64,000 nucleotides of DNA from an uncultured Gammaproteobacteria bacterium (GCA_964536725.1 CAZHYJ010000003.1:39065-103064), one strand, 5' to 3'. Shown: positions 21,478 to 36,619, counted from the first letter of the stretch. The notes: generated by a model from the sequence alone, not told the origin. Numbers and translations: made by a program.

Positions 21478-21509
21478 GCAAAAAGGGCTCTGTATAGAGC
21501 TCTTTTTTT
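21448..21509 (+). repeat. attL-like junction: secA 3' end plus terminator hairpin (copy 1 of an imperfect direct repeat)
   Basis: gtttaagaagtgtcatatgaatgtttaggcaaaaagggctctgtatagagctcttttttt matches 31658-31729 at about 85% identity. Confidence 0.6.
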
Positions 21510-21512
21510 AAT
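21478..21512 (+). terminator. rho-independent terminator of secA
   Basis: Hairpin AGGGCTCT-GTAT-AGAGCTCT followed by a T7 run. Confidence 0.7.
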
Positions 21513-21603
21513 TATCAAATTGGGTAGAGTTACTTTTTTGAGTACTATCTACAGTTTTTCTCCTCTCGGTTTGTATTGACCCCTACTCACATGGTTTTAA
21601 AGT

Positions 21604-23163
21604 CTACAGAACAAAATCTATTTCGATTTTTCCATCTCCAGCCCTAATTTGTTTTATTACTGTACGCAATATTTGTTTTTTCTCATCCAACATCATGGCT
21701 CCCCACAAATTATCAAAATCTTTAAGCGTGGCGGCAAATTTCTTTAAGACTTCTATGTTTTGATCTAGCTGCATCAGGTTGGTCTTGGTGCGTACAATTT
21801 CTTGTTCATATCGTTCTTTATCAACGCGAAGTCTGGTCATGGCCTCTCCGTATTGTTCGGTGGTTATTATGTTTTTTTCAAATGCTTCCTGCTGCCTTTT
21901 TAGCCGCTCTGGCAGACGACTGTGCTCTTGCTCTAATTTAGTCAATTCATCTGATAAATTTTGTTTAGTGTCACTATTACCACTGTAAATAATTCGCTCC
22001 TGTATTTTTGGGTTGCCGTATAAACATCTAATTTGATCAAGGACGGCACCTTCTAGTTTAGTTGCACTCATAATACGTGGTGAACAAATGCCAGAATATT
22101 TATAGCCACTGCAGAGATATTCATAGGTTGTGGTGTCAGACCAATTTTTATTGAGTTGTGAACGCTTGTGGTGTCGCGTCTGATAGTTTCCACCTTTACC
22201 ACATCTGATACATTTTAACAAGCCAGTCAACAATCCAAGTGAACGAGCGGATCCTCCAAACGCCGCCTTACTACGTTCTCGTTTGGTGCTTTGTGCTTTG
22301 GTAAATATTTCTTCTGATATTATTGGCTGGTGATTGCCTTGTACGGTAATTCCTTCTCTGCCTCTAAGTTGCTTTTCTTTTGTCTTTTTATAATCTGCAA
22401 ACCTCCACCCCCACCAAACTTTTCCAGTATAAGTGATATTACTTAGAATGTATCTGATTGTATGTGCAGTCCACACCCCACCTTTAGGGCTAATTTTTCC
22501 GCACCTATTAAGTTCTGTGGCTATCTTTTGTACACCAGCTCCTTTGGTATATTGGTTAAAAATATGACGAATAAGTGGTGCGGCTTCATTGTCTAGACTA
22601 ATTTCACGTTTAATTTTTCCATGATCGTCAATTGATTTTTTAACTGAATATCCAAAAGGCACTCGGTTTGGAATGATACCTTGTTTTGCTTTGCTGTTTC
22701 TTCCCATTTTCATGCGACGGCTAATCGCTTTGCGTTCTAAGTCCGAGCGTATGTCAGACATTCCTTCTACCATTATGTTTATGTCATCGTCATCTGAATC
22801 GTATGTTTTTGGGTCTCGTGGTTCAACAGGGGAGTTTATAGCATATGTTTGGATGCCGAGATCCTTTAACTCTTCACGTGTGATAGTGGCAGCAGCACGA
22901 TTGCGAGCAAAACGATCAAAATCTTTTACAATTACTAAATTAAATTTATGGTTGCGCGCGTCACGTAAGAGAGATTGAAACCCTACTCTTTCCTCGGTTA
23001 AGTGGCCACTTATGCCAAGATCAACGTATTTATTGTAAAGTGTCCAACCTGCATGTTCGTTGATAACACGTCTGCAGGCCTCCTCTTGATCGGCTGGCGA
23101 AGCTTTTCCATCAGCTTGTTCTTTAGTTGATACCCGAATGTAAATCGCGGCTGTTATATTCAT
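21604..23163 (-). CDS. large serine recombinase (resolvase/invertase catalytic domain, recombinase domain and zinc ribbon)
   Basis: N-terminus AAIYIRVSTKEQ with the catalytic Ser, then DLGISG and RFARN motifs; about 520 aa with a Cys-rich C-terminal region; start set at the Met of MNITAAIY. Confidence 0.85.
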   Translation of the reverse strand: MNITAAIYIRVSTKEQADGKASPADQEEACRRVINEHAGWTLYNKYVDLGISGHLTEERVGFQSLLRDARNHKFNLVIVKDFDRFARNRAAATITREELKDLGIQTYAINSPVEPRDPKTYDSDDDDINIMVEGMSDIRSDLERKAISRRMKMGRNSKAKQGIIPNRVPFGYSVKKSIDDHGKIKREISLDNEAAPLIRHIFNQYTKGAGVQKIATELNRCGKISPKGGVWTAHTIRYILSNITYTGKVWWGWRFADYKKTKEKQLRGREGITVQGNHQPIISEEIFTKAQSTKRERSKAAFGGSARSLGLLTGLLKCIRCGKGGNYQTRHHKRSQLNKNWSDTTTYEYLCSGYKYSGICSPRIMSATKLEGAVLDQIRCLYGNPKIQERIIYSGNSDTKQNLSDELTKLEQEHSRLPERLKRQQEAFEKNIITTEQYGEAMTRLRVDKERYEQEIVRTKTNLMQLDQNIEVLKKFAATLKDFDNLWGAMMLDEKKQILRTVIKQIRAGDGKIEIDFVL

Positions 23164-23361
23164 ATAATAGCATGTTAATTTAATAAAAAAAATGGAATAC
23201 AAAAAGGGGCAGTCGAAGGTCTACCCACGTTTAGTACTACGAAAGTGCTAATTGTGGAATCGAATGCCCCTTTTTGTGCGCAAAAAGATATGACAGTTTC
23301 GTAGCTGAAATCGTGGGTAGACGATATTAGTATAACAAAACAGGAAGATCTTTTCAACATG

Positions 23362-23652
23362 TTAATTATTGTTAATTTGACGTTCAACCACTGTGTTGAT
23401 CAGGCCAGCTACCATATCAGCGAGGCGGGAAGCAAGAAAATCACCATTTAGATTATTTGTGATTATAATTAATTTTTGTCCTGCTGTGCACAAGGAGCCA
23501 TCACTATCATCGGATGAATCTGGGCCATCCGACTTAGCTTTTCTGCTCTGCCTCTGCGAATGTGTTTGTCTTCCTCTAGATCTTACCTGCCTATTTTTGA
23601 TTTGCAGATTTACCACCCTGCGAGCGGTTACACTTTTTGGAATATTTGCCAT
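23362..23652 (-). CDS. hypothetical basic/acidic small protein
   Basis: 96 aa ORF inside the island; Arg-rich N-terminal part, Ser/Asp-rich middle. Confidence 0.3.
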   Translation of the reverse strand: MANIPKSVTARRVVNLQIKNRQVRSRGRQTHSQRQSRKAKSDGPDSSDDSDGSLCTAGQKLIIITNNLNGDFLASRLADMVAGLINTVVERQINNN

Positions 23653-23663
23653 ATTAGTAATTT

Positions 23664-23927
23664 TTATTTATTAGTATCTTTTTGATCTTTGTTAGTGTCA
23701 TCAGAATCAAATTCTTGCTGGTTTTCATCGATACAACTAGAATTTTTCACAACAGGTTCATTGTGGTGGATATTTTTACCTCCCTTACCTTTACGGGAAG
23801 GATTATGGCCCATTCTATAGTCATATAATGGGCAGTCATTTGATGGACAAAACTGAACTTCTTTTCTTTGACCACACATACAATTTAAACAGTTTTGTCT
23901 TATTGCTTTAATTGGAGTTAGTGTCAT
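23664..23927 (-). CDS. small zinc-ribbon protein
   Basis: CLNCMCGQRKEVQFCPSNDCPLYDY Cys cluster. Confidence 0.4.
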   Translation of the reverse strand: MTLTPIKAIRQNCLNCMCGQRKEVQFCPSNDCPLYDYRMGHNPSRKGKGGKNIHHNEPVVKNSSCIDENQQEFDSDDTNKDQKDTNK

Positions 23928-24146
23928 ATTAATTATTAAATTAATGATTATTGCAGAGGCAGGTATGTGTTAAAAGCACCTGCCTCTATTTATAGTATTT
24001 CACTCCTACCCTTACAGTTTGTACCCACCTCTACCAACAGACAGACGAACCGACAAACCACGACTCTATAGGTTGCATATATAGGGTGCAATTCTACACC
24101 AGTTATTACAGGTACTATTTTGGTGGGTCTAGTAAAGCTTTTGCAT

Positions 24147-24974
24147 TTAAGGAGGACGAGTTTTTTGTCGTTGCCCCCAGTGTGCTTTTAAACTAAACCT
24201 CACCAGACTAATACCCGTAAATTTAAATCTGTTTGGTAAAGTTCGCATCAGGTAGTTTTTTTCATTTTTTACTTGGATAGAATAGGCATATGGGTTATCT
24301 CCAACACGATCTTTTATTTGATCATCTACCACAGTATCCATATTGATTAGAATCCAATTGGAAAGAGTCGTTTTGATTTCTATATTTTGATAAACTCGCG
24401 TGTTTGGTATTATTTTCGCTTTGGATATCTGTATTTGATATATAATGGTTCGCTTTGATACATTGAACTTTTTGGCCATCTTAGTGTAAGACAATCGGCC
24501 TACGGTAATTTTTCGTTTATATTTTCTGTCTAAATCACATTCTGCGTATAGCCGAATGATCAGCGCTTTAAACTTGGTATTGTTGTTTAGCAGTTCCAAG
24601 AGACCTTTGTTCAATCTTTGTTTTCTTTTAAGTGTTCCATTCATTCTAAGTTTGTGGAGCTTGCAGATCGCTTTCCAAGACAGGTAGTATATTTTTTTGT
24701 GTCCAATTCCAGAAAATAATCCAGATTTTCTACAGGAACGTATAGTATGACGTAAATTGTCCCCGGTAAATTTTATTAGTTGATCAGTATCTACACATCC
24801 TGTGCCTGTTGGATTTAGAATATGTCTACATATGAACCAAATGCGTAGAGGCCCTACTAGGTTTTTGTGGTGCTGATAAAAATGAAAAAGAACATTAAGG
24901 TGGAAAGAAATTATTTTTGGAGTAGAATTTTTCATTTTATATATCGTTAAATAACAAAACGCACATATGAACAA
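24147..24974 (-). CDS. hypothetical protein with C-terminal helix-turn-helix (sigma region-4-like)
   Basis: Segment RLSYTKMAKKFNVSKRTIIYQIQISKAKI resembles an HTH; the true start may be the internal Met (MKNSTPK, about 24935). Confidence 0.4.
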   Translation of the reverse strand: MFICAFCYLTIYKMKNSTPKIISFHLNVLFHFYQHHKNLVGPLRIWFICRHILNPTGTGCVDTDQLIKFTGDNLRHTIRSCRKSGLFSGIGHKKIYYLSWKAICKLHKLRMNGTLKRKQRLNKGLLELLNNNTKFKALIIRLYAECDLDRKYKRKITVGRLSYTKMAKKFNVSKRTIIYQIQISKAKIIPNTRVYQNIEIKTTLSNWILINMDTVVDDQIKDRVGDNPYAYSIQVKNEKNYLMRTLPNRFKFTGISLVRFSLKAHWGQRQKTRPP

Positions 24975-25249
24975 TATCCAACCCCCATCTCCTAAAAAGC
25001 GGGGGTTAATATTTTATCTTCATATGTGCGCTACAAGTATTGTTGCCTTTTGCAACCGCGAATGTGATCGCAATATCACTCCGCCTTTTTATTGGTTTGG
25101 TCTATTTGGTAATATTTTATCGGAAGAAAACTGGTACCAAGTCATTTTGTGAATAAATTCACAATACCTGAATGATCTAAATATTTTTTGAATGTCTAAT
25201 TGATCAAAAAAACGGCATAAATTTGATGGATAAGTAATTAATTATTTTG

Positions 25250-25930
25250 TTAGCTGGTTAGTACTGCCTCTGCAAATTGCTTGTTGGCAAGGGATTTTAT
25301 ATCTGCGTTATATGATTCTTCCAGATTATTCCATTGGCGAAAGAAACGGATGGCGCGTTTAGTTGGTCGGCCATTATAAGAAATTCTGTCCATGCTTTCG
25401 CGTAATTTAGCCAACTTAATTCTTTTGTGAACATAATAGGGAAGTCCACCCAATGATTTTTTGTTGATTCTGGTTGACTCATAAGCTAATTCGCTGCAAA
25501 TACGACATACAAACAGGCTGTTTTTAGGCAGGTATAGTTTGTTGCATTTTCTACCACAATCACAGGTAAAGTAATATCGTGTTCCATATTGTAATTCTTG
25601 GGTTGATAATTTAATTGTCTGTTCTGCCCCACTGTCCATATGTGTGGCATCTTTTACAAAAAATATTTCTAGCATTAATTTTTCTCCTTCTAATTTCACT
25701 TCGTAATTGATAAATAGATTGCCGGTAGTCCCTCTAATCATAAATTTGCCTCTTCTACCCTTGGGTTTGACTAAATCTGGGAATAACTTTTCCTCTATAC
25801 CAGAGACCTGGTGTAGTAGTTTTTTGCCAAAGTCACCAATGCAGAGAGTGTGAGATTCCTCTACCAACGCTTTGACAGGTGGTTCTCTTTTTAGTATTTC
25901 AATTATGTCATTTTTGGTTAGATTTTCCAT
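25250..25930 (-). CDS. hypothetical protein with internal zinc ribbon
   Basis: 226 aa; CDCGRKC...CRIC Cys pairs; no family recognised. Confidence 0.4.
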   Translation of the reverse strand: MENLTKNDIIEILKREPPVKALVEESHTLCIGDFGKKLLHQVSGIEEKLFPDLVKPKGRRGKFMIRGTTGNLFINYEVKLEGEKLMLEIFFVKDATHMDSGAEQTIKLSTQELQYGTRYYFTCDCGRKCNKLYLPKNSLFVCRICSELAYESTRINKKSLGGLPYYVHKRIKLAKLRESMDRISYNGRPTKRAIRFFRQWNNLEESYNADIKSLANKQFAEAVLTS

Positions 25931-26203
25931 ATTTTTAACGATATTTTATTATCTATTATTAATTATTTCATAAGTACATCAGGTCAGTCTAATGTTTTAA
26001 AAAGAGAAAAAAAAGAGGGCCATACCCGATAGTATGAGTCCCGTGAATAGCAGGAGGACCCAAAACAAACCACTGCCCCTACCCGCCTATATAACCAATG
26101 TTATTATTTCCCTTTTATCAATACCTGCCTCTACCGTTAGCTACTATTTCTTTAGATAAGCCCCGCCACCGGAGCTTATTTTATTTTTAACTTATATGTA
26201 TCT

Positions 26204-26488
26204 ATGTCAGAAGTATTAAGCAACTATTCTGGATCTGCAATTACTGCCCAGACAGTTGCCTTAGAAATAGAGAAGCGTTGGGGTAGGACAGAAGTCGAGA
26301 AGTACGATCCATTTTCTAACTGTTTAACATATCGGCGGTGGGCAGAGTTAGATTACAGGGTTAAAAAAGGGGAGAAGGCGATCCGTAGTAAAACCTTCGT
26401 AGAGAAAAAAGACGAACTTGGTAATATAATAAAAAAATACCCAAAGACAGTCTGCCTCTTCTATTACCTTCAAGTAGAAAAAATATGA
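26204..26488 (+). CDS. ArdC-N (DUF1738)-like ssDNA-binding domain protein
   Basis: LTYRRWAELDYRVKKGEKAIRSKTF matches the ArdC N-domain core pattern (W.T..QA...G..V.KGEK.....F); identification by eye only. Confidence 0.45.
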   Translation: MSEVLSNYSGSAITAQTVALEIEKRWGRTEVEKYDPFSNCLTYRRWAELDYRVKKGEKAIRSKTFVEKKDELGNIIKKYPKTVCLFYYLQVEKI

Positions 26489-26691
26489 AGGTAAAAAACC
26501 AAAGACTGGTGAGTTATCGCCGCTATAGCATAAATGGACAACCAACGCCATTTCTTCCAATCGAGGGAAAGTTCCTAGAACAGTATGGTTTCAATATCGG
26601 ATGCGCCGTCGATGTTCAATACTCAAACGGCTTTGTGTCCATCAAAAAGATCATACAAGATCGTTACGGAGATAAATTTAATATTAAATAA
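26485..26691 (+). CDS. SymE-like toxin (SpoVT/AbrB fold)
   Basis: QRLVSYRRYSINGQPTPFLPIEGKFLEQYGFNIGCAVDVQYSNGFVSIKKI parallels the E. coli SymE core ([47 protein letters not shown]); overlaps the upstream gene by 4 nt. Confidence 0.6.
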   Translation: MKVKNQRLVSYRRYSINGQPTPFLPIEGKFLEQYGFNIGCAVDVQYSNGFVSIKKIIQDRYGDKFNIK

Positions 26692-26693
26692 CT

Positions 26694-26957
26694 ATGCATA
26701 AAAAAATTTTAAACAACATACAAAGAACAAATCTATCTCTGTTAGACCCCATAATCGTGGGTGAGCTAAAATCTGGTAATTGGCGCAACTCACCAAGTCC
26801 ATTGCTGCACTGTATTAAATGCGGTGGTTATAAAATCACCACGCCGATAATCCAGTTTTATGGTTATCTGGGAGAGAGGTTAGTATGTTATGAGTGCCAG
26901 AAATTAATTCAGTCTAATTTAAAATCATATGAACCATACCAACGTTGCAGTCGTTAA
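26694..26957 (+). CDS. small zinc-ribbon protein
   Basis: CIKCGGYKITTP...CYECQKLI Cys pairs. Confidence 0.35.
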   Translation: MHKKILNNIQRTNLSLLDPIIVGELKSGNWRNSPSPLLHCIKCGGYKITTPIIQFYGYLGERLVCYECQKLIQSNLKSYEPYQRCSR

Positions 26958-27657
26958 ACCTGCCCCGACTATAGTATCTATACCTGCTCTGTCTCTACAG
27001 GAGGCGATAGAACCTTCCAAGGTGCTTGAATTCGCTCACAAGGCAGCTAAAGCGCTCAAAGACGTCATTGATAGTAGTTCTAAGAAAGTAATGATCAATG
27101 GCGAACAGTTTCTGACCTTTGAAAATTGGCAGACAATAGCCCGGTTCTATAATATAACTGTCGGAACAGAATCTACTAAGCCAATAACCAAAGACAATAA
27201 GATATTTGGCTATGAAAGCAAGGCAGTAGCATATCGTGACGGCATAATTATTTCCTCCGCAGAAGCTAGTACTTTTAGAGATGAGGCAAGTTGGAGAGAT
27301 AAACCAAGTTTCCAACTAAAGTCTATGGCACAAACCAGGGCAGCGGCTAAGTGTTTAAGGAATATATTAGCGTGGGTTGTCGTGCTTGCAGGGTATAAAC
27401 CTACCCCTGCGGAGGAAATGATCGAACACAATGCACCTGTCTCTGCTGATAGTTATAGTGCCACTAAGAATTTCAGATCTTGGGAGGACGCTAAAGAGAA
27501 TGTAATCACTCCTAAACAATCTTCGCTTCTGCGGTCTCTCATAATTGAAAAAGTGCTAGACGAAGATGCTCGTGAGCAGAAACTCAGCGAAATTAAAGAT
27601 TTAACCAAGTCTGATGCTTCTATTTGGATATCCGACCTTATTAACGATAGAGTATGA
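26929..27657 (+). CDS. possible phage-type single-strand annealing protein (RecT/Redbeta-like); function tentative
   Basis: MINGEQFLTFENWQTIARFYNI and KSMAQTRAAAKCLRNIL resemble conserved RecT-family segments; recalled pattern only. Confidence 0.3.
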   Translation: MNHTNVAVVKPAPTIVSIPALSLQEAIEPSKVLEFAHKAAKALKDVIDSSSKKVMINGEQFLTFENWQTIARFYNITVGTESTKPITKDNKIFGYESKAVAYRDGIIISSAEASTFRDEASWRDKPSFQLKSMAQTRAAAKCLRNILAWVVVLAGYKPTPAEEMIEHNAPVSADSYSATKNFRSWEDAKENVITPKQSSLLRSLIIEKVLDEDAREQKLSEIKDLTKSDASIWISDLINDRV

Positions 27658-27986
27658 TGTATTTAATCGTCATAATCGTCGTTGTGGCTATCTTTTGTGC
27701 GCTTCGTAAGTTCTTTCTAGGTGACGATGTCTCTAGTTCGCCACAGTACAAGAATGTTGATGTTGTCCTGTCTCTGCCGGTAGAGATAGTTGCAAATCAT
27801 AGACCCACAATGTCTATAAGTGAGAGAGAAAGGCGTAGGCGCAACTTGTTGCAGAGTGTTTATGCTCTTGGTTTTAGACATGCCAACGCTTACAAGATAT
27901 TAGACGCTCGCGATCACGACTTTTCTCTATTACCGTATTATTACCTAAGTAATAAACAAAAAATATATGTTGACCCACCAAAATAA
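27654..27986 (+). CDS. small membrane protein
   Basis: N-terminal TM helix; translationally coupled to neighbours. Confidence 0.35.
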   Translation: MMYLIVIIVVVAIFCALRKFFLGDDVSSSPQYKNVDVVLSLPVEIVANHRPTMSISERERRRRNLLQSVYALGFRHANAYKILDARDHDFSLLPYYYLSNKQKIYVDPPK

Positions 27987-28185
27987 ATCTCCTGAAGATA
28001 AAGCATCACTGTTATTCCTATTGTCGTTTTGGTTTGTGATCCTACCTGCGTTGTTTGCCTGTTTCATTATCGTTTTGTTTCTTCCAGGTTTACGGGAGTC
28101 TCTTTCGGATATTCTGGCGGTAAGCTTCTTCGTATTTGCTGGATTGTCTCTGTCGTATTGGGGGATAAAGCGTTTTAAAAAGTAA
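27967..28185 (+). CDS. small two-TM membrane protein (holin-like topology)
   Basis: 72 aa with two hydrophobic helices and a charged C-terminus. Confidence 0.3.
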   Translation: MLTHQNKSPEDKASLLFLLSFWFVILPALFACFIIVLFLPGLRESLSDILAVSFFVFAGLSLSYWGIKRFKK

Positions 28186-28193
28186 TTGCCGGG

Positions 28194-28230
28194 GCAGTAG
28201 CTAAAAACTACTGCCTTTTATTTTTATTGA
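28194..28230 (+). terminator. rho-independent terminator
   Basis: GCAGTAG-CTAAAAA-CTACTGC hairpin followed by CTTTTATTTTT. Confidence 0.6.
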
Positions 28231-28438
28231 CTAAACCGCCTAAAAGTAGCATAATAATTATGACAATTTAATGACCTAAACCATTGGGTAAAATCGGTGG
28301 CATGGTCGAAAAACGTATACACACAGAGATGGACTCACCATCTTTGGTATGTGTATGCGTCAATATTCGAAAGGATATTGGGGTCCGAAAGGTCCCGCCA
28401 AAGTATGGTAGTCCTTTTTTGTATATAATTATTTTTTT

Positions 28439-28996
28439 ATGTCTTTCCTAGATTATATTTCGGGCAGAGTCGGTACAATTAACAAACTCAGAGACTTAGT
28501 TTGCGGAAAATACCGAAATCGCATAGACAATGTTTTGTCATCTGGCAATAAAGATGTATCAACTTCACCGGAATTTAGTGTTTGTTTGATGGCCGTTATT
28601 CACACTGAATACATGATACTTAATTCTTTTCAGCCAGATGTTGATTTGTTTATGAAGTATTCAAATAATATTTCTGAACATTATTTTGATGAAATATATA
28701 AAATAATGGTTGTTTGGTTTATCTACCATAATTTTAAACTTTTCCCAGAGACAAAGAATATTGATGAAAAAAAATTCCAAACTTTTTTAGCTTTAATATT
28801 TGAAATACTGCCTGATAAATTTGAATATATCCAAAATAATTTTATCAATTCTGGCAATGACATTGACGGTTATTTTGAACAAATATGTAATTGCATTTCA
28901 GCAAACAAGAACGATTCTATGGCGTTCATTAAATTTTCAAAACTTGCAGCGGAAAGTCACAAAAGTGCATTATCTATTTTAACAAACGGTGTTTAG
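28439..28996 (+). CDS. hypothetical protein
   Basis: 185 aa ORF in the island; no motif recognised. Confidence 0.4.
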   Translation: MSFLDYISGRVGTINKLRDLVCGKYRNRIDNVLSSGNKDVSTSPEFSVCLMAVIHTEYMILNSFQPDVDLFMKYSNNISEHYFDEIYKIMVVWFIYHNFKLFPETKNIDEKKFQTFLALIFEILPDKFEYIQNNFINSGNDIDGYFEQICNCISANKNDSMAFIKFSKLAAESHKSALSILTNGV

Positions 28997-29022
28997 CTTA
29001 GTTGTTTAAATATAATTAGCAT

Positions 29023-30315
29023 ATGAATAAATATCTTAAGTTGCTTCCAATTTTTCTGTTGTTTGGTTTGTTGTTTATAAAACCAGTAAAAGCAACAATG
29101 GCATGCATGGAGGGTGTTCCAGATGTGAACACAATGAATAGCTGGCCACGTGAGCAATTAGATGCGTTCAATAGGCAATTACAGGCCAATTGTCAGCGTG
29201 AAAGAGATGCTATAGCGGCAGAGGCAGAATATCAGGCCAACTTAGTAGAGATAGAGTATCAAGGGTATGTTGATAGTTTTAATATTCACCAGAAGGCGCT
29301 GGATGGTTTAAAAGAAGCTAATCTTGCGTTGTATAATAAATGTCATACTAGTTCTTTGTCTATTTGCATAATAGGGGATAGTGTTACGGACTTATCAAAC
29401 CAATCTTTTGGCCAGTTAAGTGTAATAGTCGCTTCAAAAGTAAATTGCGTGAATGCGATTAATAAATGCATGTCGGCAGAGCAAGACAATACTAAGTATG
29501 ATGCTTTGTGTAAAAATACTCTTGGACCATACGGAGCTTTGGATCGTTTGACTTCTGACACTTATTATTGCAAGTGTATTGGTGGTTATGTGAAATCAAA
29601 TAATCGTTGTGTAGATGTTGCAACGGATAATGATAGTGGTTGTAAAAGTAGATACGGTAATAATAGTTATTTTTTAAAAATCAAAGACGACGGTACGGTG
29701 ACTTGCGATTGCGTTTCGGGTTATAAATGGCAGGGCAATACTTGCGTTAAAGATGTGCCTGTTTTAGCTCCAATAACTGTGACTACGCCAGACCAATTAT
29801 GTCAAAATAAATATGGGCAATTTTCTAAATCTATTTCAAATGTAAATGGTCAAAATATATGCGATTGTTTAGGTGGTTATAGCTGGAATCAAGGTCAGAC
29901 CCAGTGCGTTAAATTAGAAGATAATAAAGTTGTTGATTGTAAGAAAGGTACTGTTGATCGTAGTGGAGTATGTTTGACTCCACAACAAGATTGTGAAAAT
30001 TCCTATGGCCCAGATGCTAAAGCAGTTGAAGATGGTTCCGATTTGGGATATACTTGTCCTGTGGTACCGAAAAATACCAAATCAAAAATTGTCGAAAATC
30101 CACCAGTAGAGAAAATTAAAACGCTTGATATAGAAGTGGTCAAATTGGACAATGGCAACAAAATTGTTTCATCCACAGTGCCACTGTTAACAGATGTAAT
30201 GAATAATATAACAATCACAACACCACCTCAAATAAGTATAGAAAAACCAAAACCGGTAAGTATCTTTTTTAACGCCATAAAATCATTCTTCCGCTCTATT
30301 TTCAGATTAAGATAA
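29023..30315 (+). CDS. secreted cysteine-rich repeat protein (CxC-x2-GY-x-W/K...C modules)
   Basis: Signal peptide; at least three repeats such as YYCKCIGGYVKSNNRCVDV, VTCDCVSGYKWQGNTCVKDV and ICDCLGGYSWNQGQTQCVKL; about 34 Cys. Confidence 0.55.
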   Translation: MNKYLKLLPIFLLFGLLFIKPVKATMACMEGVPDVNTMNSWPREQLDAFNRQLQANCQRERDAIAAEAEYQANLVEIEYQGYVDSFNIHQKALDGLKEANLALYNKCHTSSLSICIIGDSVTDLSNQSFGQLSVIVASKVNCVNAINKCMSAEQDNTKYDALCKNTLGPYGALDRLTSDTYYCKCIGGYVKSNNRCVDVATDNDSGCKSRYGNNSYFLKIKDDGTVTCDCVSGYKWQGNTCVKDVPVLAPITVTTPDQLCQNKYGQFSKSISNVNGQNICDCLGGYSWNQGQTQCVKLEDNKVVDCKKGTVDRSGVCLTPQQDCENSYGPDAKAVEDGSDLGYTCPVVPKNTKSKIVENPPVEKIKTLDIEVVKLDNGNKIVSSTVPLLTDVMNNITITTPPQISIEKPKPVSIFFNAIKSFFRSIFRLR

Positions 30316-30368
30316 TCTGTGGTATAAATAAGCACAGCTTAGTTCACTAATTCCTAGCCACAAACCAT

Positions 30369-31250
30369 ATGAAGCAATTCTTTTTAAATCTGCTAAAATT
30401 AGCCTTCTCTTTTATCACGATAGTGTCTATTATCGCCGTCTGGATGACTCTATCATATTATGTTATTAAAGTTTGCGTACCAGCCTTCTCCGTTGACACA
30501 AGCACCGATACTTCAACGACAGAAACAGTAGAAAGCACCGAAGAAGACTGCAATGTTTACGGTATAAACCTCCACGGTGACGTTATTACATATCACACAC
30601 CCGACTCATTTAATAGCGAAGGTGACCTAATGTTTGACCAAACCTCAGCTGATGTAGTAATGAGGCTTATTACCGAAGCAGAAAATGATGATGATATTAA
30701 ATACGTAATAGTTGAAATATCTTCTTCTGGTGGATCACCAGCCGCTGGTTTTGAAATGATGCAGGCGTTTAGAAGTTCGACCAAGCCAGTAGTTGCGTTT
30801 GCTAGGGATGGTGCTATGTCTGCAGCCTATTTGGCGGCAACAGGGGCACAAACAATATTTGCGTCTCACGCTTCAGATATAGGTTCAATCGGGGTAACGG
30901 CCTCATATCTAGAGAATGTGGAACAAAACAAAAAGGAGGGATTAAAATATATTGATTTAAGTGTTGGAAAATTTAAAGACACAATGAACCCAAACCGCGC
31001 GCTTACCAACGAAGAAAAACAACTAATAATGCGAGACATTGTATTATTGAATGAAAATTTTATAAAAACAGTAGCCGAAAATCGTAAATTAGACATTAAA
31101 AAAGTCCGCCTACTTGCTGATGGATCCACGATGATGGGGGAGGATGCTCTTAAGAATGGTTTGATTGATAAAATCGGGAACTTATATGATGTGGAGGATT
31201 TTGTTAAAGATAAAATAGGGGAGGAAGTAAATATTTGCTGGAAGAATTAA
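30369..31250 (+). CDS. S49-family serine peptidase (signal peptide peptidase SppA-like, ClpP/crotonase fold), membrane anchored
   Basis: N-terminal TM helix; VIVEISSSGGSPAAGFEMMQA...GAMSAAYLAATGAQTIFASHASDIGSIGV matches the SppA Ser/Lys dyad region. Confidence 0.65.
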   Translation: MKQFFLNLLKLAFSFITIVSIIAVWMTLSYYVIKVCVPAFSVDTSTDTSTTETVESTEEDCNVYGINLHGDVITYHTPDSFNSEGDLMFDQTSADVVMRLITEAENDDDIKYVIVEISSSGGSPAAGFEMMQAFRSSTKPVVAFARDGAMSAAYLAATGAQTIFASHASDIGSIGVTASYLENVEQNKKEGLKYIDLSVGKFKDTMNPNRALTNEEKQLIMRDIVLLNENFIKTVAENRKLDIKKVRLLADGSTMMGEDALKNGLIDKIGNLYDVEDFVKDKIGEEVNICWKN

Positions 31251-31428
31251 GTATTAAAAGGGGCTAAATAGCAATAGTTTAGACCTTTTTTATATTATTA
31301 ATTACTTTACTTAACATGGCAATCTTCTGATGGTAATTATCTAACCGGAATTTTTATTAGGTTAGCCGGATCGGTAGTTTACATGTTGGTGCCGCTTATT
31401 TTGAAGGACTTAAAACTTTGGTAGCACT

Positions 31429-31593
31429 ATGATGTCAGATCAAGAATTTAGAAAACATTTACCTAAAGACAAAGAGTGCACTGATGAAGAAGTAAATGAA
31501 TTAAGAAGAGTAATGTATGGCTTGGCAGATCTTGCCTTTGATAAGTGGGTAAAGGAGAAGGGGATTAAGGTTGATAAGTTAAATGCGGAGTAG
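31429..31593 (+). CDS. hypothetical small protein (54 aa)
   Basis: ORF below the track threshold: MMSDQEFRKHLPKDKECTDEEVNELRRVMYGLADLAFDKWVKEKGIKVDKLNAE. Confidence 0.25.
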   Translation: MMSDQEFRKHLPKDKECTDEEVNELRRVMYGLADLAFDKWVKEKGIKVDKLNAE

Positions 31594-31657
31594 TTTGAAT
31601 TTGGTATTGTTTTCTGTTAAACTGCCAGCAGTGTTTAAGCGGTGTTTAAAGTCTAAA

Positions 31658-31729
31658 CATTAGACTAACACTTCAAGAAGTGTCATGGTAATGTTTAGGC
31701 AAAAATGGCTCTGTACAGGGCCATTTTTT
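31658..31729 (+). repeat. attR-like repeat: degenerate copy of the secA 3' end (HFKKCHGNV-stop) plus terminator hairpin, containing the dyad site ACACTTcaagAAGTGT
   Basis: About 85% identical to 21448-21509; hairpin AATGGC...GCCATT plus T-run; upstream perfect inverted repeat AGTCTAA-ACA-TTAGACT at 31649-31665. Confidence 0.6.
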
Positions 31730-31791
31730 AAACTTGACATTCGTCTAATTTCCGTCTATAATACGTCTATAAAGTACTTCATTCAAACCCT

Positions 31792-32823
31792 ATGTTCCAG
31801 CCAAAATACACCATTACACCAAGGTTGTTGGCTAATATCAAAAGAATAGCTGAGTTGGTGGTTGAATTAAACAGCAGACATTTTCCTAAAATTGTCTTAT
31901 TGGATTTCGAAAAAAGAGCCAGAGAAATTTCGGCTCATTCTTCCACCGGCATAGAGGGCAATCCTTTACCCTTAACTGAAGTAAAACGTTTGTTAAAACA
32001 TGCGCCAGAGCGTAGGCGAGATAGTGAGAAAGAAGTATTAAATTACAACAATGCTTTGGAATATTTAAACAGTCTGCTTAATCAGAGTGGTTTTAAATTT
32101 GATTTGAATTTAATTTTGGATATTCAAAAGAAGGTTACCGCTGATTTGATTCACGAATTTCGTTCTGGTAAAATTCGCCAGGAACCGGTGTTTGTAAATA
32201 ATCCCCAAACTCGACGGACGGTTTATTATCCACCAGATCATCAGGATGTTCCAAACATGGTAAGTGATTTGTTGCAATTTACAGCAGTTAACGAAAGCAA
32301 ACTCGATCCGTTGGTGGTAGCTGGTATTTTTCACAAGCAGTTTGTAGTTATTCATCCTTTTGTTGATGGCAACGGACGAACTACTCGTTTGGCCACGAAA
32401 ATGCTTTTAGCCAGAATGGGTTTAAATACTTTTAATCTATTTAGTTTTGAAAATTATTATAACAATAATGTCACTAAATATTTTCAAAATGTTGGTTTAA
32501 TCGGCAACTACTATGATTTAAAAAACGATATTGATTTTACCCTGTGGCTAGAATATTTTACTGATGGTATTATTGATGAGCTCTTAAGAGTCGGTGGAGA
32601 ATTGGTTAAAACAAATATCACACCGGAAAATGAGTTAAAACCTTACCATCAAGAAATATTAAGCTATATCAAGAATAATAATTTTATCAAAGACAGCGAT
32701 TACTCTAAACTTACCAAGCGAGCCAAACCAACAAGGAATTTAGATTTTAGAAAGTTAATTGAGCTTGGTTTAATTGAAAAACAGGGCAAGGGTAAAAGTA
32801 CCTACTATATTTTGAAGAAATAA
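31792..32823 (+). CDS. Fic/Doc-family protein (adenylyltransferase-type Fic domain with C-terminal winged-helix)
   Basis: Canonical HPFVDGNGRTTR active-site motif. Confidence 0.85.
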   Translation: MFQPKYTITPRLLANIKRIAELVVELNSRHFPKIVLLDFEKRAREISAHSSTGIEGNPLPLTEVKRLLKHAPERRRDSEKEVLNYNNALEYLNSLLNQSGFKFDLNLILDIQKKVTADLIHEFRSGKIRQEPVFVNNPQTRRTVYYPPDHQDVPNMVSDLLQFTAVNESKLDPLVVAGIFHKQFVVIHPFVDGNGRTTRLATKMLLARMGLNTFNLFSFENYYNNNVTKYFQNVGLIGNYYDLKNDIDFTLWLEYFTDGIIDELLRVGGELVKTNITPENELKPYHQEILSYIKNNNFIKDSDYSKLTKRAKPTRNLDFRKLIELGLIEKQGKGKSTYYILKK

Positions 32824-32825
32824 TG

Positions 32826-32860
32826 TAAACATTAAATTAACACTTTAAGAAGTGTCATGG
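32826..32860 (+). repeat. third copy of the recombination-site core (taaacattaaattaacactttaagaagtgtcatgg)
   Basis: 33 of 35 nt identical to 31654-31688; carries the dyad ACACTTtaagAAGTGT; with copy 2 it brackets the Fic gene as direct repeats. Confidence 0.55.
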
Positions 32861-32873
32861 GGTGTAAAGCGAT

Positions 32874-33317
32874 ATGGAAGATAAAAAAGATTTGTATTTC
32901 GTCGCGGTTAAAGTCTTTTTGCAAAATAGCGAAGGAAAACTTTTGATTACGAAAGATAAGTTTGGTGATTGGGATATCCCGGGTGGGAGATTGCGTGACA
33001 ATGATTTTAACGTACCTCTTGAGGAGGTTGTCGCTAGAAAGATAAAAGAGGAATTAGGGGAGATTTCATACAAATTGGGTGAGCCCGCCGTTTTTATGCG
33101 TCACGAGCGAGACGAAATCTTGTCGACAGGCGAAAGAGAAAAGCGCAGAATTTTTGCAATTGGTTACAAGGCGGAATATTTGGGTGGCGATTTGAAATTG
33201 GGAGGCAACCATGAAAAGTTAGAATGGGTAGATCTGAATAATTTTATTCCGGAGGATTATTTCACCGGTGGCTGGTTACAAGGGGTGAAAGAGTTTCAAT
33301 TTAAATATGGAAGATAA
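32874..33317 (+). CDS. NUDIX hydrolase
   Basis: Nudix box GGRLRDNDFNVPLEEVVARKIKEELGE. Confidence 0.75.
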   Translation: MEDKKDLYFVAVKVFLQNSEGKLLITKDKFGDWDIPGGRLRDNDFNVPLEEVVARKIKEELGEISYKLGEPAVFMRHERDEILSTGEREKRRIFAIGYKAEYLGGDLKLGGNHEKLEWVDLNNFIPEDYFTGGWLQGVKEFQFKYGR

Positions 33318-33522
33318 AATTAAACAAGGAGTTTACGAGCATTATTCAGGGAAACGTTATCAGTTAGTTGGTGTAGCGAAACACAGTGAGAATTTAGAAG
33401 AATTGGTTGTATACAAAGCTCTCTACGGCGAAGGTCAGATTTGGGTGCGGCCAATTGGTATGTGGTTTGAAGAGGTAGAGTGCGAAGGAAAGAAGATGCC
33501 GCGGTTCAGATTAGTTGAATAA
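33307..33522 (+). CDS. DUF1653-like small protein
   Basis: YEHYSGKRYQLVGVAKHSENLEELVVYKALYGEGQIWVRP fits the DUF1653 pattern as recalled. Confidence 0.45.
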   Translation: MEDKIKQGVYEHYSGKRYQLVGVAKHSENLEELVVYKALYGEGQIWVRPIGMWFEEVECEGKKMPRFRLVE

Positions 33523-33524
33523 TT

Positions 33525-33983
33525 ATGATAAAAAAAATTTTAACACTCGCATTGGTTGTTAAAGAAAATGAAGTTCTTTTAGGGATGAAAAAACGTGGTT
33601 TTGGTATGGGGTGGTGGAATGGGTTTGGTGGTAAGGTAGAGCCGGGAGAAAGTATTGTCGAAGCAGCTAAGCGAGAAATGCGCGAAGAGTCCAATGTAGA
33701 AATAGTTGCGATGGAAGAAATTGGGTTGATTGATTTTTATTTTGTTGGCAATCCGATTCCTTGGGAAGTTCATCTTTTTAAAGTATCGGAATATTCTGGC
33801 GAGCCAGTTGAGTCCGAAGAAATGTTACCGAAGTGGTTTCCACTAGAAAATCCGCCATTTGATAAAATGTGGGCGGACGATCCGGTCTGGTATCCATATT
33901 TTTTAAGAGGCGAACGGTTTAATGCTGAGTTTTGGTTTGATGAGAATAAAAAAGTGGAAAAATTTAATATCGAAAAAATTTAG
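33525..33983 (+). CDS. NUDIX hydrolase (MutT/8-oxo-dGTPase-like)
   Basis: Nudix box GFGGKVEPGESIVEAAKREMREESNV. Confidence 0.75.
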   Translation: MIKKILTLALVVKENEVLLGMKKRGFGMGWWNGFGGKVEPGESIVEAAKREMREESNVEIVAMEEIGLIDFYFVGNPIPWEVHLFKVSEYSGEPVESEEMLPKWFPLENPPFDKMWADDPVWYPYFLRGERFNAEFWFDENKKVEKFNIEKI

Positions 33984-34008
33984 TAGTGTCCGCAGTTTTG
34001 CATATAAA

Positions 34009-34032
34009 ATATCCCGATTTAATTCGGGATAT
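34009..34032. terminator. bidirectional terminator hairpin between convergent genes
   Basis: 9-bp stem ATATCCCGA/TCGGGATAT with 6-nt loop, T-run on both strands. Confidence 0.55.
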
Positions 34033-34050
34033 TTTGTTGCTAATGAGATT

Positions 34051-35454
34051 TTATGTTGTTTTGTGCCGCTTTAATAGGTAGGTTAATATTGGTGGTGTAA
34101 GAAGAGTAGATAATATTACCATGATGATTATGATAGAAAATATTTCATCATTGATAATGTTTAAAGATTTGCCGATCATAGCAAAGATTAGACCGACTTC
34201 GCCGCGTGGTATCATGCCAAATCCTACAATATATTTGTTGACTTTTCCTGCAGCTAAACCGGACACTATTTTTCCAACAAATGCTGTGGCGGTAATCGCC
34301 AGAGCGGTTAGTAATATCGGTAGATTAAACATTGTTTCCAACTTTACATTCATACCAGTAACAACAAAGAAAATCGGGATCAAAAACATTCCGATTGGTT
34401 GTATTAAATCCTCAACATGTCTTTCAGAATGTGGTTCGATAGCGTGTAAAACTTTTGCTTTGTCCTCAGTGTTCAAGTTTGCGGTCGCTTCTTTAACATC
34501 AGCCACTATGTGTGGATCTTTAAAATATGAAAAATGTACTGGATCTAAAACCAATCCCGCCGCAAACGCACCAACAATTGGAGCTAAACCAATTTTTTGC
34601 GCCAAAAATGAAATTATCAGACCGAAGCTGATAGCTAAAGTAAATTTCATGCCTACGCCGGTGTGTATTTTGGCGAATAGTTTACCGAGCTGTGGGGCCA
34701 ATAATTGACCAATGACAATTGATCCGACTAAAAACAAAATTGCTTTGGCTGTGATCCAACCAATCATACCAAGACTTACACCGCCAACTGTCGCGATAGC
34801 TGAAACAATTGCCAGAATAATTAAACCCAGAACGTCGTCGATTACCGCTGCCCCCAAAACAATCTGTGCTTCCGGTATGTGCAACTTTTTTAGATCTTGA
34901 AAAACTCGCGCGGTAATACCGACCGATGTGGCGGTTAGAGCGGCCCCAATGAATAAATAAGCATTGGATGATAGCCCAGGCAAGATCCAGGGGCCAACTA
35001 TATATGCACCCAATACAAATGGCACAACAACACCTACGCAAGCCACCAAAAAGGCGCGCAAACCAACCTGTTTCATTTTTTGAATATTGGATTCCAAACC
35101 GATTTGGAACAACAAAATAACCACACCCAATTCAGATAAAAAAGTGATAATTGAATCTTGTTTGATTGGTTCAAATATCATTATCCCGAGTAGTGCAAGA
35201 TTGCCCATAATGACGCCGATGACAAGTTCGCCCAATACCGATGGTTGTCCAATTTTTTCGACTAAGCTAGAAATTTTTGCCATGATAAGTATGACTGCAA
35301 TCCAGAGAAATGTATAAGCCGCGGAATGTCCTGTGCCGCCGCTGTTTTCTGAGGCAAAGACGAAAGATCCTAAAAACAGAGATGTGATCAAAGAGGCGAT
35401 GACCACATTTTTTAGTTTGATGTTTTTCCAATTGGATAATGACGAAAATTTCAT
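34051..35454 (-). CDS. cation:proton antiporter (CPA/Na+-H+ exchanger family)
   Basis: About 12 TM helices, Gly-rich helices typical of NhaP/Kef-type exchangers. Confidence 0.8.
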   Translation of the reverse strand: MKFSSLSNWKNIKLKNVVIASLITSLFLGSFVFASENSGGTGHSAAYTFLWIAVILIMAKISSLVEKIGQPSVLGELVIGVIMGNLALLGIMIFEPIKQDSIITFLSELGVVILLFQIGLESNIQKMKQVGLRAFLVACVGVVVPFVLGAYIVGPWILPGLSSNAYLFIGAALTATSVGITARVFQDLKKLHIPEAQIVLGAAVIDDVLGLIILAIVSAIATVGGVSLGMIGWITAKAILFLVGSIVIGQLLAPQLGKLFAKIHTGVGMKFTLAISFGLIISFLAQKIGLAPIVGAFAAGLVLDPVHFSYFKDPHIVADVKEATANLNTEDKAKVLHAIEPHSERHVEDLIQPIGMFLIPIFFVVTGMNVKLETMFNLPILLTALAITATAFVGKIVSGLAAGKVNKYIVGFGMIPRGEVGLIFAMIGKSLNIINDEIFSIIIIMVILSTLLTPPILTYLLKRHKTT

Positions 35455-35572
35455 ATTTGTTAGTTAAAAAATAAAGACGGAGATAATTATACCTGTTTTA
35501 TTGTTTTCTTTCAAGACTCTGTTCAAAAGCATGGTGTGTATGTTATAATATTTGAATATAAAAATATAAAAT

Positions 35573-36526
35573 ATGTTTTTTCCTATAATTTTAATCGTCG
35601 TCAGTTTGGTAATTCTAATTTTGGGGGCAGAGGGGTTGGTGCGCGGAGCATCTTCGATTGCCAAGAAGGCTGGCATCTCGTCTTTGGTTATCGGTTTAAC
35701 AGTTGTTGCTTTTGGTACTTCCGCTCCGGAATTGATTGTTAATTTATTTTCTGCCCTTAAAGGTTCTTCAGAAATTGCGATTGGAAATATAGTTGGTAGT
35801 AATATTGCTAACATCTTTTTAATTTTAGGTTTATCGGCAATTATTTATCCACTCTCTGTTAAGAGGAGTACTGTCTGGAAAGAGATCCCGTTTGCTCTTT
35901 TGGCGATGGTCTTGGTCTATACTATGGGTAACGATATGTTTTTTGATGGGGCAAGCTACAACGCTATCACTCGCACTGATGGGTTTGCTTTGATTAGTAT
36001 TTTTATTATCTTCATGTTTTATACTTTTGGGATTGCCAAGAGTGGAGGAGAAGGTGAACAGGTGAGTGCATACAATTGGCCAATTTCTCTTCTCTTAACT
36101 ATTACTGGTTTGGTATTTTTGTTTTTTGGTGGAAAGTTGTTGGTAGACAACGCAGTGATACTGGCTCGTATGGCTGGTTTATCTGAAGCTTTAATTGGTC
36201 TAACAATCGTCGCTGTTGGTACTTCGTTGCCAGAATTAGCGACTTCGTTGGTGGCGGTTTATCATCACCATGACGATATTGCTATCGGTAATATTGTTGG
36301 TTCGAATATTTTTAATGTTTTTTGGATTTTGGGTGCAACTGGTACAATATTACAGTTACCTTTTAATTCAAATGTTAATATTGATGTGCTGGTCGGTATT
36401 TTTGCCACAGTTTTACTTTTTCTTTTTATGTTTGTCGGCTCGCGCCGAAAATTGGATCGTTGGCAAGGTTTTCTTTTTGTGGCTATGTATGCCGCTTATG
36501 TCGTCTATTTGGTTCAAAGGGGCTAA
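35573..36526 (+). CDS. Ca2+/cation antiporter (CaCA family, YrbG-like)
   Basis: Duplicated alpha-repeat motifs GTSAPELIVNL and GTSLPELATSL. Confidence 0.8.
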   Translation: MFFPIILIVVSLVILILGAEGLVRGASSIAKKAGISSLVIGLTVVAFGTSAPELIVNLFSALKGSSEIAIGNIVGSNIANIFLILGLSAIIYPLSVKRSTVWKEIPFALLAMVLVYTMGNDMFFDGASYNAITRTDGFALISIFIIFMFYTFGIAKSGGEGEQVSAYNWPISLLLTITGLVFLFFGGKLLVDNAVILARMAGLSEALIGLTIVAVGTSLPELATSLVAVYHHHDDIAIGNIVGSNIFNVFWILGATGTILQLPFNSNVNIDVLVGIFATVLLFLFMFVGSRRKLDRWQGFLFVAMYAAYVVYLVQRG

Positions 36527-36619
36527 AATTAGCAATAACTTCAGCGGTTTTGCGCCCCTTGCCAAAAAACACAAAAAGAGCTAGAATATACGCGCTTTTA
36601 ACGCTATATTTTTTTATCT

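Follow-up and report, generated by a model that had tools for sequence, protein, structure and literature searches.

A gene pair for an ArdC-N-like and a SymE-like protein on an integrative element of a putative CPR bacterium

The closest described counterparts of the gene pair considered here are ArdC of R388 and SymE of Escherichia coli. The N-domain of ArdC is a non-specific single-stranded DNA (ssDNA)-binding domain, in which helices and a sheet are combined with a long protruding β-hairpin, and the protease of the protein is dispensable for anti-restriction (PMC7213743). For SymE, the relevant passage of a review (PMC11894785) reports, after Thompson et al. (2022), that the protein has no RNase activity and binds DNA non-specifically; the same passage states that its overexpression compacts the nucleoid and kills cells, and describes an AlphaFold-predicted tetramer in which the C-terminal helices form a 'handshake' that may support further multimerisation. 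In RefSeq, the product of the gene (NC_000913, 4579499-4579911), which lies between hsdS and mcrB, is named 'nucleoid-associated protein SymE', so that the toxin premise of the preliminary description of the present locus is dated. Cryptic inoviruses have been reported from CPR hosts (Roux et al. 2019, PMC6813254), and a literature search on ArdC together with SymE returned nothing relevant. Here, we describe an ArdC-N-like and a SymE-like gene that overlap within a 64,000-nt stretch of DNA, hereafter the window, and compare them with related loci, which are designated by L numbers.

Host, island and operon

The nearest named relatives of the SecA protein encoded in the window belong to Candidatus Magasanikbacteria (78% identity) and to other Patescibacteria; judging from these relatives, the host is a Magasanikbacteria-like CPR (Patescibacteria) bacterium. 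In the Magasanikbacteria contig L017, secA, secD and secF are contiguous, and nucleotide synteny between this contig and the window (blastn) ends at position 21465 and restarts at 36749, which indicates that approximately 15 kb were inserted between secA and secD in the window (Table 1). The pair is therefore located inside a mobile island, as the preliminary description had supposed. In L016, whose SecA is the closest relative found (91% identical), secA is followed by an unrelated ORF of more than 474 aa (L016 4598-6019), and neither secD nor the island lies directly after it; the 3′ flank of secA may be a site at which insertions recur or the sequence varies.

The family of the serine recombinase found at the left edge of the island also occurs in L007, L008, L010, L013, L022 and L029. 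An HTH ORF of 275 aa (24147-24974) occupies the Rep position, no recognisable Rep being present in the window's element, and R-M genes are absent from the island, the remaining content of which comprises an S49 peptidase (30369-31250), a Fic protein, two NUDIX proteins and ion exchangers. The Fic-domain protein (31792-32823, + strand) matches the SoFic defence model of PADLOC (E 1e-44), and its gene is followed by the two NUDIX genes (32874-33317 and 33525-33983).

Six tightly packed co-directional ORFs (26204-28185), followed by a terminator-like hairpin, constitute the operon, in which the 94-aa ArdC-N-like and the 68-aa SymE-like genes are cistrons one and two, both on the + strand and with the 4-nt overlap that had been claimed for them, which reads ATGA. 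The Zn-ribbon protein encoded divergently from the operon has no family in Pfam and a homologue in L115 (E 8e-14). The 87-aa Zn-ribbon protein, which gave no Pfam match, is kept in L003, L004, L020, L026, L029 and L034, while the two closing hydrophobic ORFs, also without a match in Pfam, are kept in L003 and L029. Searches with the C2 protein returned nothing from Pfam or from phages (tblastn) and chance-level matches only from the PDB (sequence profile), and the PHROGs search yielded only families of unknown function. A likeness of the C2 N-domain to Rad52/Sak-type annealing proteins was seen by eye only and, given no Pfam or PDB signal, is not claimed. According to the alignment, this N-domain is swappable, with an unrelated N-domain in L003; the acidic C-terminal ~55 aa (L..LI.E...DE.ERE..L.EL) are conserved and also occur elsewhere as a lone ORF of 57-63 aa (for example, L007 8334-8507 and L008 8481-8672).

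Upstream of the operon, the T-run of a conserved hairpin stops ~14 nt before the ATG of the ArdC-N-like gene. This (G)CCAC(C)-loop hairpin is kept in at least eight related loci, and perfect stems of differing sequence are found in L018, L020/L021, L026, L028, L029 and L045; the covariation of the stems points less to a dsDNA operator recognised by its sequence than to a structure formed by the nucleic acid. Possible roles of the hairpin are those of a terminator/attenuator, an operator, an sRNA end, an ssDNA hairpin, or an ssDNA origin or nick site. A full-length LOOT RNA (Rfam RF03000; 28273-28396, + strand; 80.6 bits, gathering score 46.4) is located ~55 nt past the terminator-like hairpin of the operon. 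A second LOOT RNA lies in an element with a SymE-like gene (L058 5414-5537, − strand; 80.4 bits), ~450 nt upstream of the ArdC-N-like gene, and none was found in 15 loci without a SymE-like gene, mostly of the inovirus type. LOOT, an orphan sRNA motif, may be carried by CPR mobile elements.

Table 1. Positions of the island, the operon and its flanking features in the window.
Feature	Position	Strand	Remarks
Inserted island, ~15 kb	21478..36619		Between secA (18712-21477) and secD (36620-38695)
Large serine recombinase	21604..23202	-	On the island's left edge, 126 nt past secA; domains Resolvase, Recombinase and Zn_ribbon_recom
Zn-ribbon protein, 226 aa, cluster ZnRib188	25250..25930	-	Divergent from the operon; conserved partner of the module
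Conserved hairpin	26156..26189	+	Invariant loop (G)CCAC(C), then T-run; alignment of the window, L003, L029 and L020
ArdC-N-like ORF, 94 aa	26204..26488	+	Stand-alone ArdC N-domain, predicted ssDNA binder; opens the rightward operon
SymE-like ORF, 68 aa	26485..26691	+	Minimal SymE-family (AbrB/MazE-fold) protein; ATGA overlap with the upstream stop codon
CxxC...CxxC Zn-ribbon protein, 87 aa	26694..26957	+	Operon gene three
C2 protein, 242 aa	26929..27657	+	Match to phrog_19042 (5.6e-16), a family of unknown function
Two small ORFs, hydrophobic stretches seen by eye	27654..28185	+	110 aa (27654-27986) and 72 aa (27967-28185); close the operon
Terminator-like hairpin	28191..28217	+	10 pairs and T-run; operon end

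The 94-aa and 68-aa proteins

Pfam scores are marginal for both proteins of the pair. Against ArdcN (DUF1738, PF08401), the 94-aa ORF reaches 21.1 bits (E 3.8e-4), just under the gathering score of 22.6, and the match is limited to residues 39-63, corresponding to profile positions 65-89 of 123; the same profile is matched at E ≤ 0.01 by 21 of 24 relatives of the protein (best 4.2e-7). PDB sequence searches with the protein and its profile gave chance-level matches only, and the ArdC chain was not found there by sequence with the profile of the ArdC-N-like family. The AlphaFold model generated from the family alignment (pLDDT 83.6) comprises helices at residues 12-26, 28-31 and 43-48 and a long hairpin formed by strands 60-69 and 75-87, and this combination of helices and long β-hairpin agrees with the fold described for the ArdC domain (PMC7213743). 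In Foldseek, the top three PDB matches of the model are all R388 ArdC (6I89, 6SNA_F and 6SNA_A; probability 1.00, TMq up to 0.58, identity 23-30%), with a clear gap to the next match at E 0.43. The ArdC-N-like assignment made in the preliminary description is borne out by this comparison; the signature quoted for it is present only in part, the protein reading W....L.YRVKKGEKA. The fold of the 94-aa protein, as modelled, is that of the ArdC N-domain; because the C-terminal metalloprotease domain is wholly missing, however, the protein is not an ArdC.

The 68-aa ORF passes the gathering score of SymE_toxin (PF08845) narrowly (29.3 bits versus 29.0; E 9e-7; residues 8-49) and stays below the cut-off of the NCBIfam model 'endoribonuclease SymE' (PRK13605; 22.4 bits versus 132). 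With E. coli K-12 SymE, the sequence of which was taken from NC_000913, it shares 40% identity over 30 residues (BLASTP, E 1e-7), and in hhalign the profile of the SymE-like family (53 sequences) matches residues 15-73 of the 113-aa E. coli protein with a probability of 96.3%. A profile comparison with the generic MazE/AbrB type, which had been proposed as a check, places the family on the SymE side: SymE_toxin is matched by 44 of the 53 members (best 6.3e-14) and MazE_antitoxin by only 4, weakly. The SymE likeness noticed in the sequence therefore holds, and the E. coli string that had been quoted to illustrate it is right except for one residue, VGY having been given as VSY. Sequence searches with the SymE-like profile in the PDB gave chance-level matches only, and tblastn with the 68-aa protein found no match in plasmids and a single chance-level match in phages, within a polymerase gene.

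Structurally, the AlphaFold model of the 68-aa protein (pLDDT 84.9) adopts four strands and one helix, and its best-ranked PDB neighbours in Foldseek are MazE, AbrB, C56 of pSSVi, C68 of pSSVx, Sso7c4, VapB and SpoVT, at E-values that are weak (≥0.18) and were obtained with a monomer model; at this level of similarity, the model corresponds to the swapped-hairpin AbrB/MazE-like fold. Its structural similarity extends to many small proteins of phages that carry the label AbrB or SymE. Only three close relatives were found by word search, and an exhaustive profile search defined a SymE-like subfamily of 92 cluster representatives (E ≤ 1e-3). Given this subfamily and the frequency of small SymE-/AbrB-like proteins in uncultured phages, the taxonomic misfit that had been seen in a SymE-type protein at this locus is weak. 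The chain ends ~11 residues past the shared core, and both the C-terminal two-helix domain and the N-terminal tail of E. coli SymE are absent. Because it has no C-terminal domain and no sign of an antisense RNA, the 68-aa protein, placed by its profile match in the SymE Pfam family, is yet not an E. coli-type SymE.

None of the 92 representatives is an ArdC-N/SymE fusion. When compared again with the 53-sequence profile, 91 representatives match, and 36 of these contain tandem SymE-like domains: 55 have one domain copy, 16 two, 5 three, 14 four and 1 eight, the multi-domain examples including P0033 (571 aa), P0042 and P0051 (714 aa), the last with nine SymE-like stretches in the initial profile search. 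The occurrence of two, three, four and eight tandem domains fits DNA-binding pseudo-dimers. In L118, a four-domain SymE-like protein comes after a single-domain one, and the downstream ORF is, by eye, a putative IS110-type transposase.

Related loci and element types

Among the GTDB species-representative genomes, the ArdC-N-like family is found in seven MAGs. Five of these belong to CPR bacteria, namely Falkowbacteria (two), Paceibacterota, Zambryskiibacteriota and Saccharibacteria (one each); of the other two, one carries the label Latescibacterota and one has no classification. Metagenome and IMG/VR scans provided 96 further loci, and the comparison set comprises 106 loci with an ArdC-N-like gene, some of them redundant copies. 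A SymE-like gene is present in 33 of these and absent from 73. In all 33 it is encoded downstream of the ArdC-N-like gene, on that gene's strand, directly adjacent in 32 and separated by one small ORF in L031, and no SymE-like ORF occurs elsewhere in the 106 loci, so that the tight linkage of the two genes proposed in the preliminary description is a recurrent one. A 4-nt overlap is seen in 10 of the 32 adjacent pairs; in most others, 3-8 or 43-66 nt separate the two genes, and the remaining pairs comprise one 8-nt overlap, one 198-nt gap and five with ambiguous start codons.

ORF clustering divides the loci into two element types. The first, inovirus-like, carries a REP_ORF2-G2P Rep, a Zot ATPase, small hydrophobic coat-like ORFs and a LexA-like repressor. 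The second, to which the window belongs, consists of a recombinase and, further along, a Zn-ribbon gene followed by divergent genes for the ArdC-N-like, SymE-like, small Zn-ribbon, C2 and two hydrophobic proteins; in variants, two other small ORFs replace the small Zn-ribbon gene. Zot is present in 39 of the 73 loci without a SymE-like gene and in none of the 33 with one, whereas the C2 gene occurs in 23 of the 33 loci with and 5 of the 73 without, and the divergent Zn-ribbon gene (ZnRib188) in 11 of the 33 and 3 of the 73, respectively. The gene order of the window is repeated in L003 and L029. In L008 and L013, the second type is extended by type I R-M cargo and by a Rep of the G2P type, and the ArdC-N-like gene stands beside REP_ORF2-G2P in L007, L008 and L013. 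The location of E. coli symE in a restriction ('immigration control') region may parallel the presence of type I R-M cargo beside the module in L007, L008, L013 and L022.

In small inovirus-like CPR elements and proviruses (L098-L105 and many metagenome loci, for example, L038, L044, L067 and L084), a single rightward gene has a fixed place between Rep and Zot, namely that of the ArdC-N-like protein. Some of the inovirus-like IMG/VR contigs with an ArdC-N-like gene measure 5-9 kb, and several integrated copies lie ~3 kb from a tRNA gene. The converse case, a locus of a CPR MAG with a SymE-like gene and without an ArdC-N-like gene, is L115 (GCA_001817765.1, MHIZ01000031.1; 3978-6716), where the SymE-like gene is the first rightward gene, opposite the homologous Zn-ribbon gene, and is accompanied by a tyrosine integrase, a Prim-Pol/PriCT primase and an S49 peptidase (37% identical to that of the window at 30369-31250). 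L115 is a different CPR integrative element, sharing the Zn-ribbon, SymE-like, small Zn-ribbon and S49 peptidase genes with the island of the window.

Function and comparison with known systems

We read the pair as an accessory cassette of a CPR integrative element, composed of an ssDNA binder and a dsDNA binder, and not as a toxin-antitoxin system, and give this reading about an even chance of being correct. The pair would represent the first two cistrons of a conserved core operon in a family of integrative elements of Patescibacteria (CPR) that presumably integrate by a serine or tyrosine recombinase, with the SymE-like gene as an optional accessory in a fixed slot. The 94-aa protein, having no protease, most likely binds single-stranded element DNA, namely rolling-circle or entry intermediates. 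Such binding fits both the ssDNA-binding activity of the ArdC N-domain, with its dispensable protease (PMC7213743), and the presence of the gene in inovirus-like, Rep-bearing elements of the ssDNA type; for the window's own element, with no recognisable Rep, an ssDNA intermediate is assumed. The 68-aa protein, a bare SymE/AbrB/MazE-fold domain, most likely dimerises and binds dsDNA, since its best-ranked structural neighbours are dsDNA binders and E. coli SymE binds DNA, and would serve the element in a regulatory or architectural role; one putative target is the region, with its divergent promoter and hairpin, that separates the Zn-ribbon gene from the operon.

DNA binding by the two proteins could also serve protection, in that the ArdC-N-like protein would coat the single-stranded and the SymE-like protein the double-stranded form of the element, jointly shielding its incoming or replicating DNA from restriction, including by the type I systems carried on sister elements. 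ArdC counters HsdRMS with its protease activity dispensable (PMC7213743), type I R-M cargo lies next to the module in the sister elements L007, L008, L013 and L022, and E. coli symE is situated between hsdS and mcrB, its product being described as a non-specific DNA binder in the review passage cited above (PMC11894785). However, the association with R-M is weak, an HsdM cluster being found in 5 of the 33 loci with a SymE-like gene versus 6 of the 73 without; the island of the window has no R-M genes, nothing connects the AbrB-fold protein to restriction, and the genes are not at a leading edge, unlike the anti-restriction genes of conjugative plasmids. We consider such shielding unlikely. If it were true, SymE-family proteins would gain a function on mobile elements, DNA protection there would be the ancestral role of the family, and the location of symE between hsdS and mcrB would acquire a rationale.

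An addiction module appears quite improbable. In such a module, the SymE-like protein would be a toxin, acting via nucleoid condensation or RNA cleavage and stabilising the island, and would be restrained in one of two ways, through an antisense RNA resembling SymR (type I) or through the ArdC-N-like protein encoded upstream (type II-like). The Pfam family, whose threshold the ORF just exceeds, is named after a type I toxin, the two-gene layout and the 4-nt overlap (10 of 32 adjacent pairs) resemble those of many toxin-antitoxin pairs, and overexpressed E. coli SymE kills cells according to the review passage (PMC11894785). Yet a consensus scan of the window for sigma70-like promoters found no promoter-like site on the minus strand at 26210-26968, and thus none opposite the 5′ end of the gene, where the preliminary description had placed a possible SymR-like antisense RNA; across 28 distinct SymE-like loci, the consensus scan gave 6 antisense promoter sites versus ~9.8 expected from background, that is, no enrichment. 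Rfam has no match over the SymE-like gene, and PADLOC-DB has none for any of the six operon proteins, the pair included; the one gene that it recognises, Fic (SoFic), is distant. The 68-aa protein is without the C-terminal 'handshake' helices of E. coli SymE. Each gene, moreover, occurs without the other, the ArdC-N-like gene persisting without a SymE-like gene in 73 of the 106 loci and the SymE-like gene occurring alone in L115, so that the mutual dependence of a type II-like pair is not seen; in the loci sampled, the pair occurs only as part of a larger conserved operon and never outside it. The lack of an antisense signal, of the C-terminal domain and of a PADLOC match, together with this mutual dispensability, argues against an addiction pair of either kind, type I or type II-like; a SymE/SymR-style type I reading is not supported, and neither is the self-contained addiction or defence module that had been suggested. 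The SymE-like protein could be toxic in a dose-dependent manner, as could any overexpressed non-specific DNA binder.

There is only a slight chance that the resemblance is incidental, the 68-aa ORF being a generic AbrB/MazE-type transcription factor or orphan antitoxin and the pairing a mere operon neighbourhood: the Pfam scores of both proteins are marginal, the NCBIfam SymE equivalog model scores far below its cut-off, and MazE, VapB and AbrB are among the structural neighbours, but 44 of 53 family members match SymE_toxin against 4 weak matches to MazE_antitoxin, hhalign gives 96% to E. coli SymE, the fixed position beside the ArdC-N-like gene in 33 loci over a wide divergence is not due to chance, and the neighbouring ORFs that were scanned include no recognisable MazF, VapC or other toxin partner.

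The pair belongs to a recurrent core module in which a Zn-ribbon gene is divergent from genes for the ArdC-N-like, SymE-like, small Zn-ribbon and C2 proteins, and which combines known domains in a new and recurrent way on CPR elements of which little is known. The mobile elements of CPR bacteria are almost uncharacterised, and the shared ArdC-N-like gene ties the module to inovirus-like proviruses of the same hosts. The annotation 'SymE toxin' is here better read as a minimal DNA-binding domain, in agreement with the recent transfer of E. coli SymE to the nucleoid-associated proteins, and caution is advisable in that matches to PF08845 should not be counted as type I toxins.

Compared with the known systems, the 68-aa protein shares with E. 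coli SymE (PF08845) the core ...P.I.[IL].G.[FW]LE..GF..G..V.V....G.I.I, an AbrB/MazE-like fold, a small size and a basic N-terminal stretch. It differs in length (68 aa versus 113 aa), the disordered N-tail and the C-terminal two-helix domain being found only in the E. coli protein. E. coli symE is a solitary, SOS-regulated chromosomal gene accompanied by the symR antisense RNA, whereas the gene of the window is the second cistron of a mobile-element operon in a CPR host and shows no sign of an antisense RNA. The AbrB/MazE/SpoVT swapped-hairpin binders, including Sso7c4 and the Sulfolobus plasmid-virus proteins C56 (from pSSVi) and C68 (from the hybrid virus-plasmid pSSVx), are small dimeric dsDNA binders and the best neighbours of the 68-aa model; they differ in that sequence profiles place the protein of the window in the SymE family and not in MazE_antitoxin, and no cognate toxin gene is present beside it.

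R388 ArdC (6I89/6SNA), the only strong structural match of the 94-aa model, has a YRVKKGEKA-type motif in common with it. ArdC comprises 297 aa, with an N-domain of 134 residues and a metalloprotease, whereas the 94-aa protein consists of a shortened N-domain without protease; ArdC is found on conjugative plasmids and the family of the window on integrative or inovirus-like CPR elements, the likeness being one of predicted fold. As for the CPR inovirus-like proviruses, many elements bearing the ArdC-N-like gene share with them Zot, a G2P-type Rep, hydrophobic coat-like proteins and a serine recombinase. The element of the window and all 33 loci with a SymE-like gene, in contrast, are without Zot and coat-like genes, and what these SymE-bearing elements have in common with the inovirus-like proviruses is only the ArdC-N-like gene, the recombinase and sometimes Rep.
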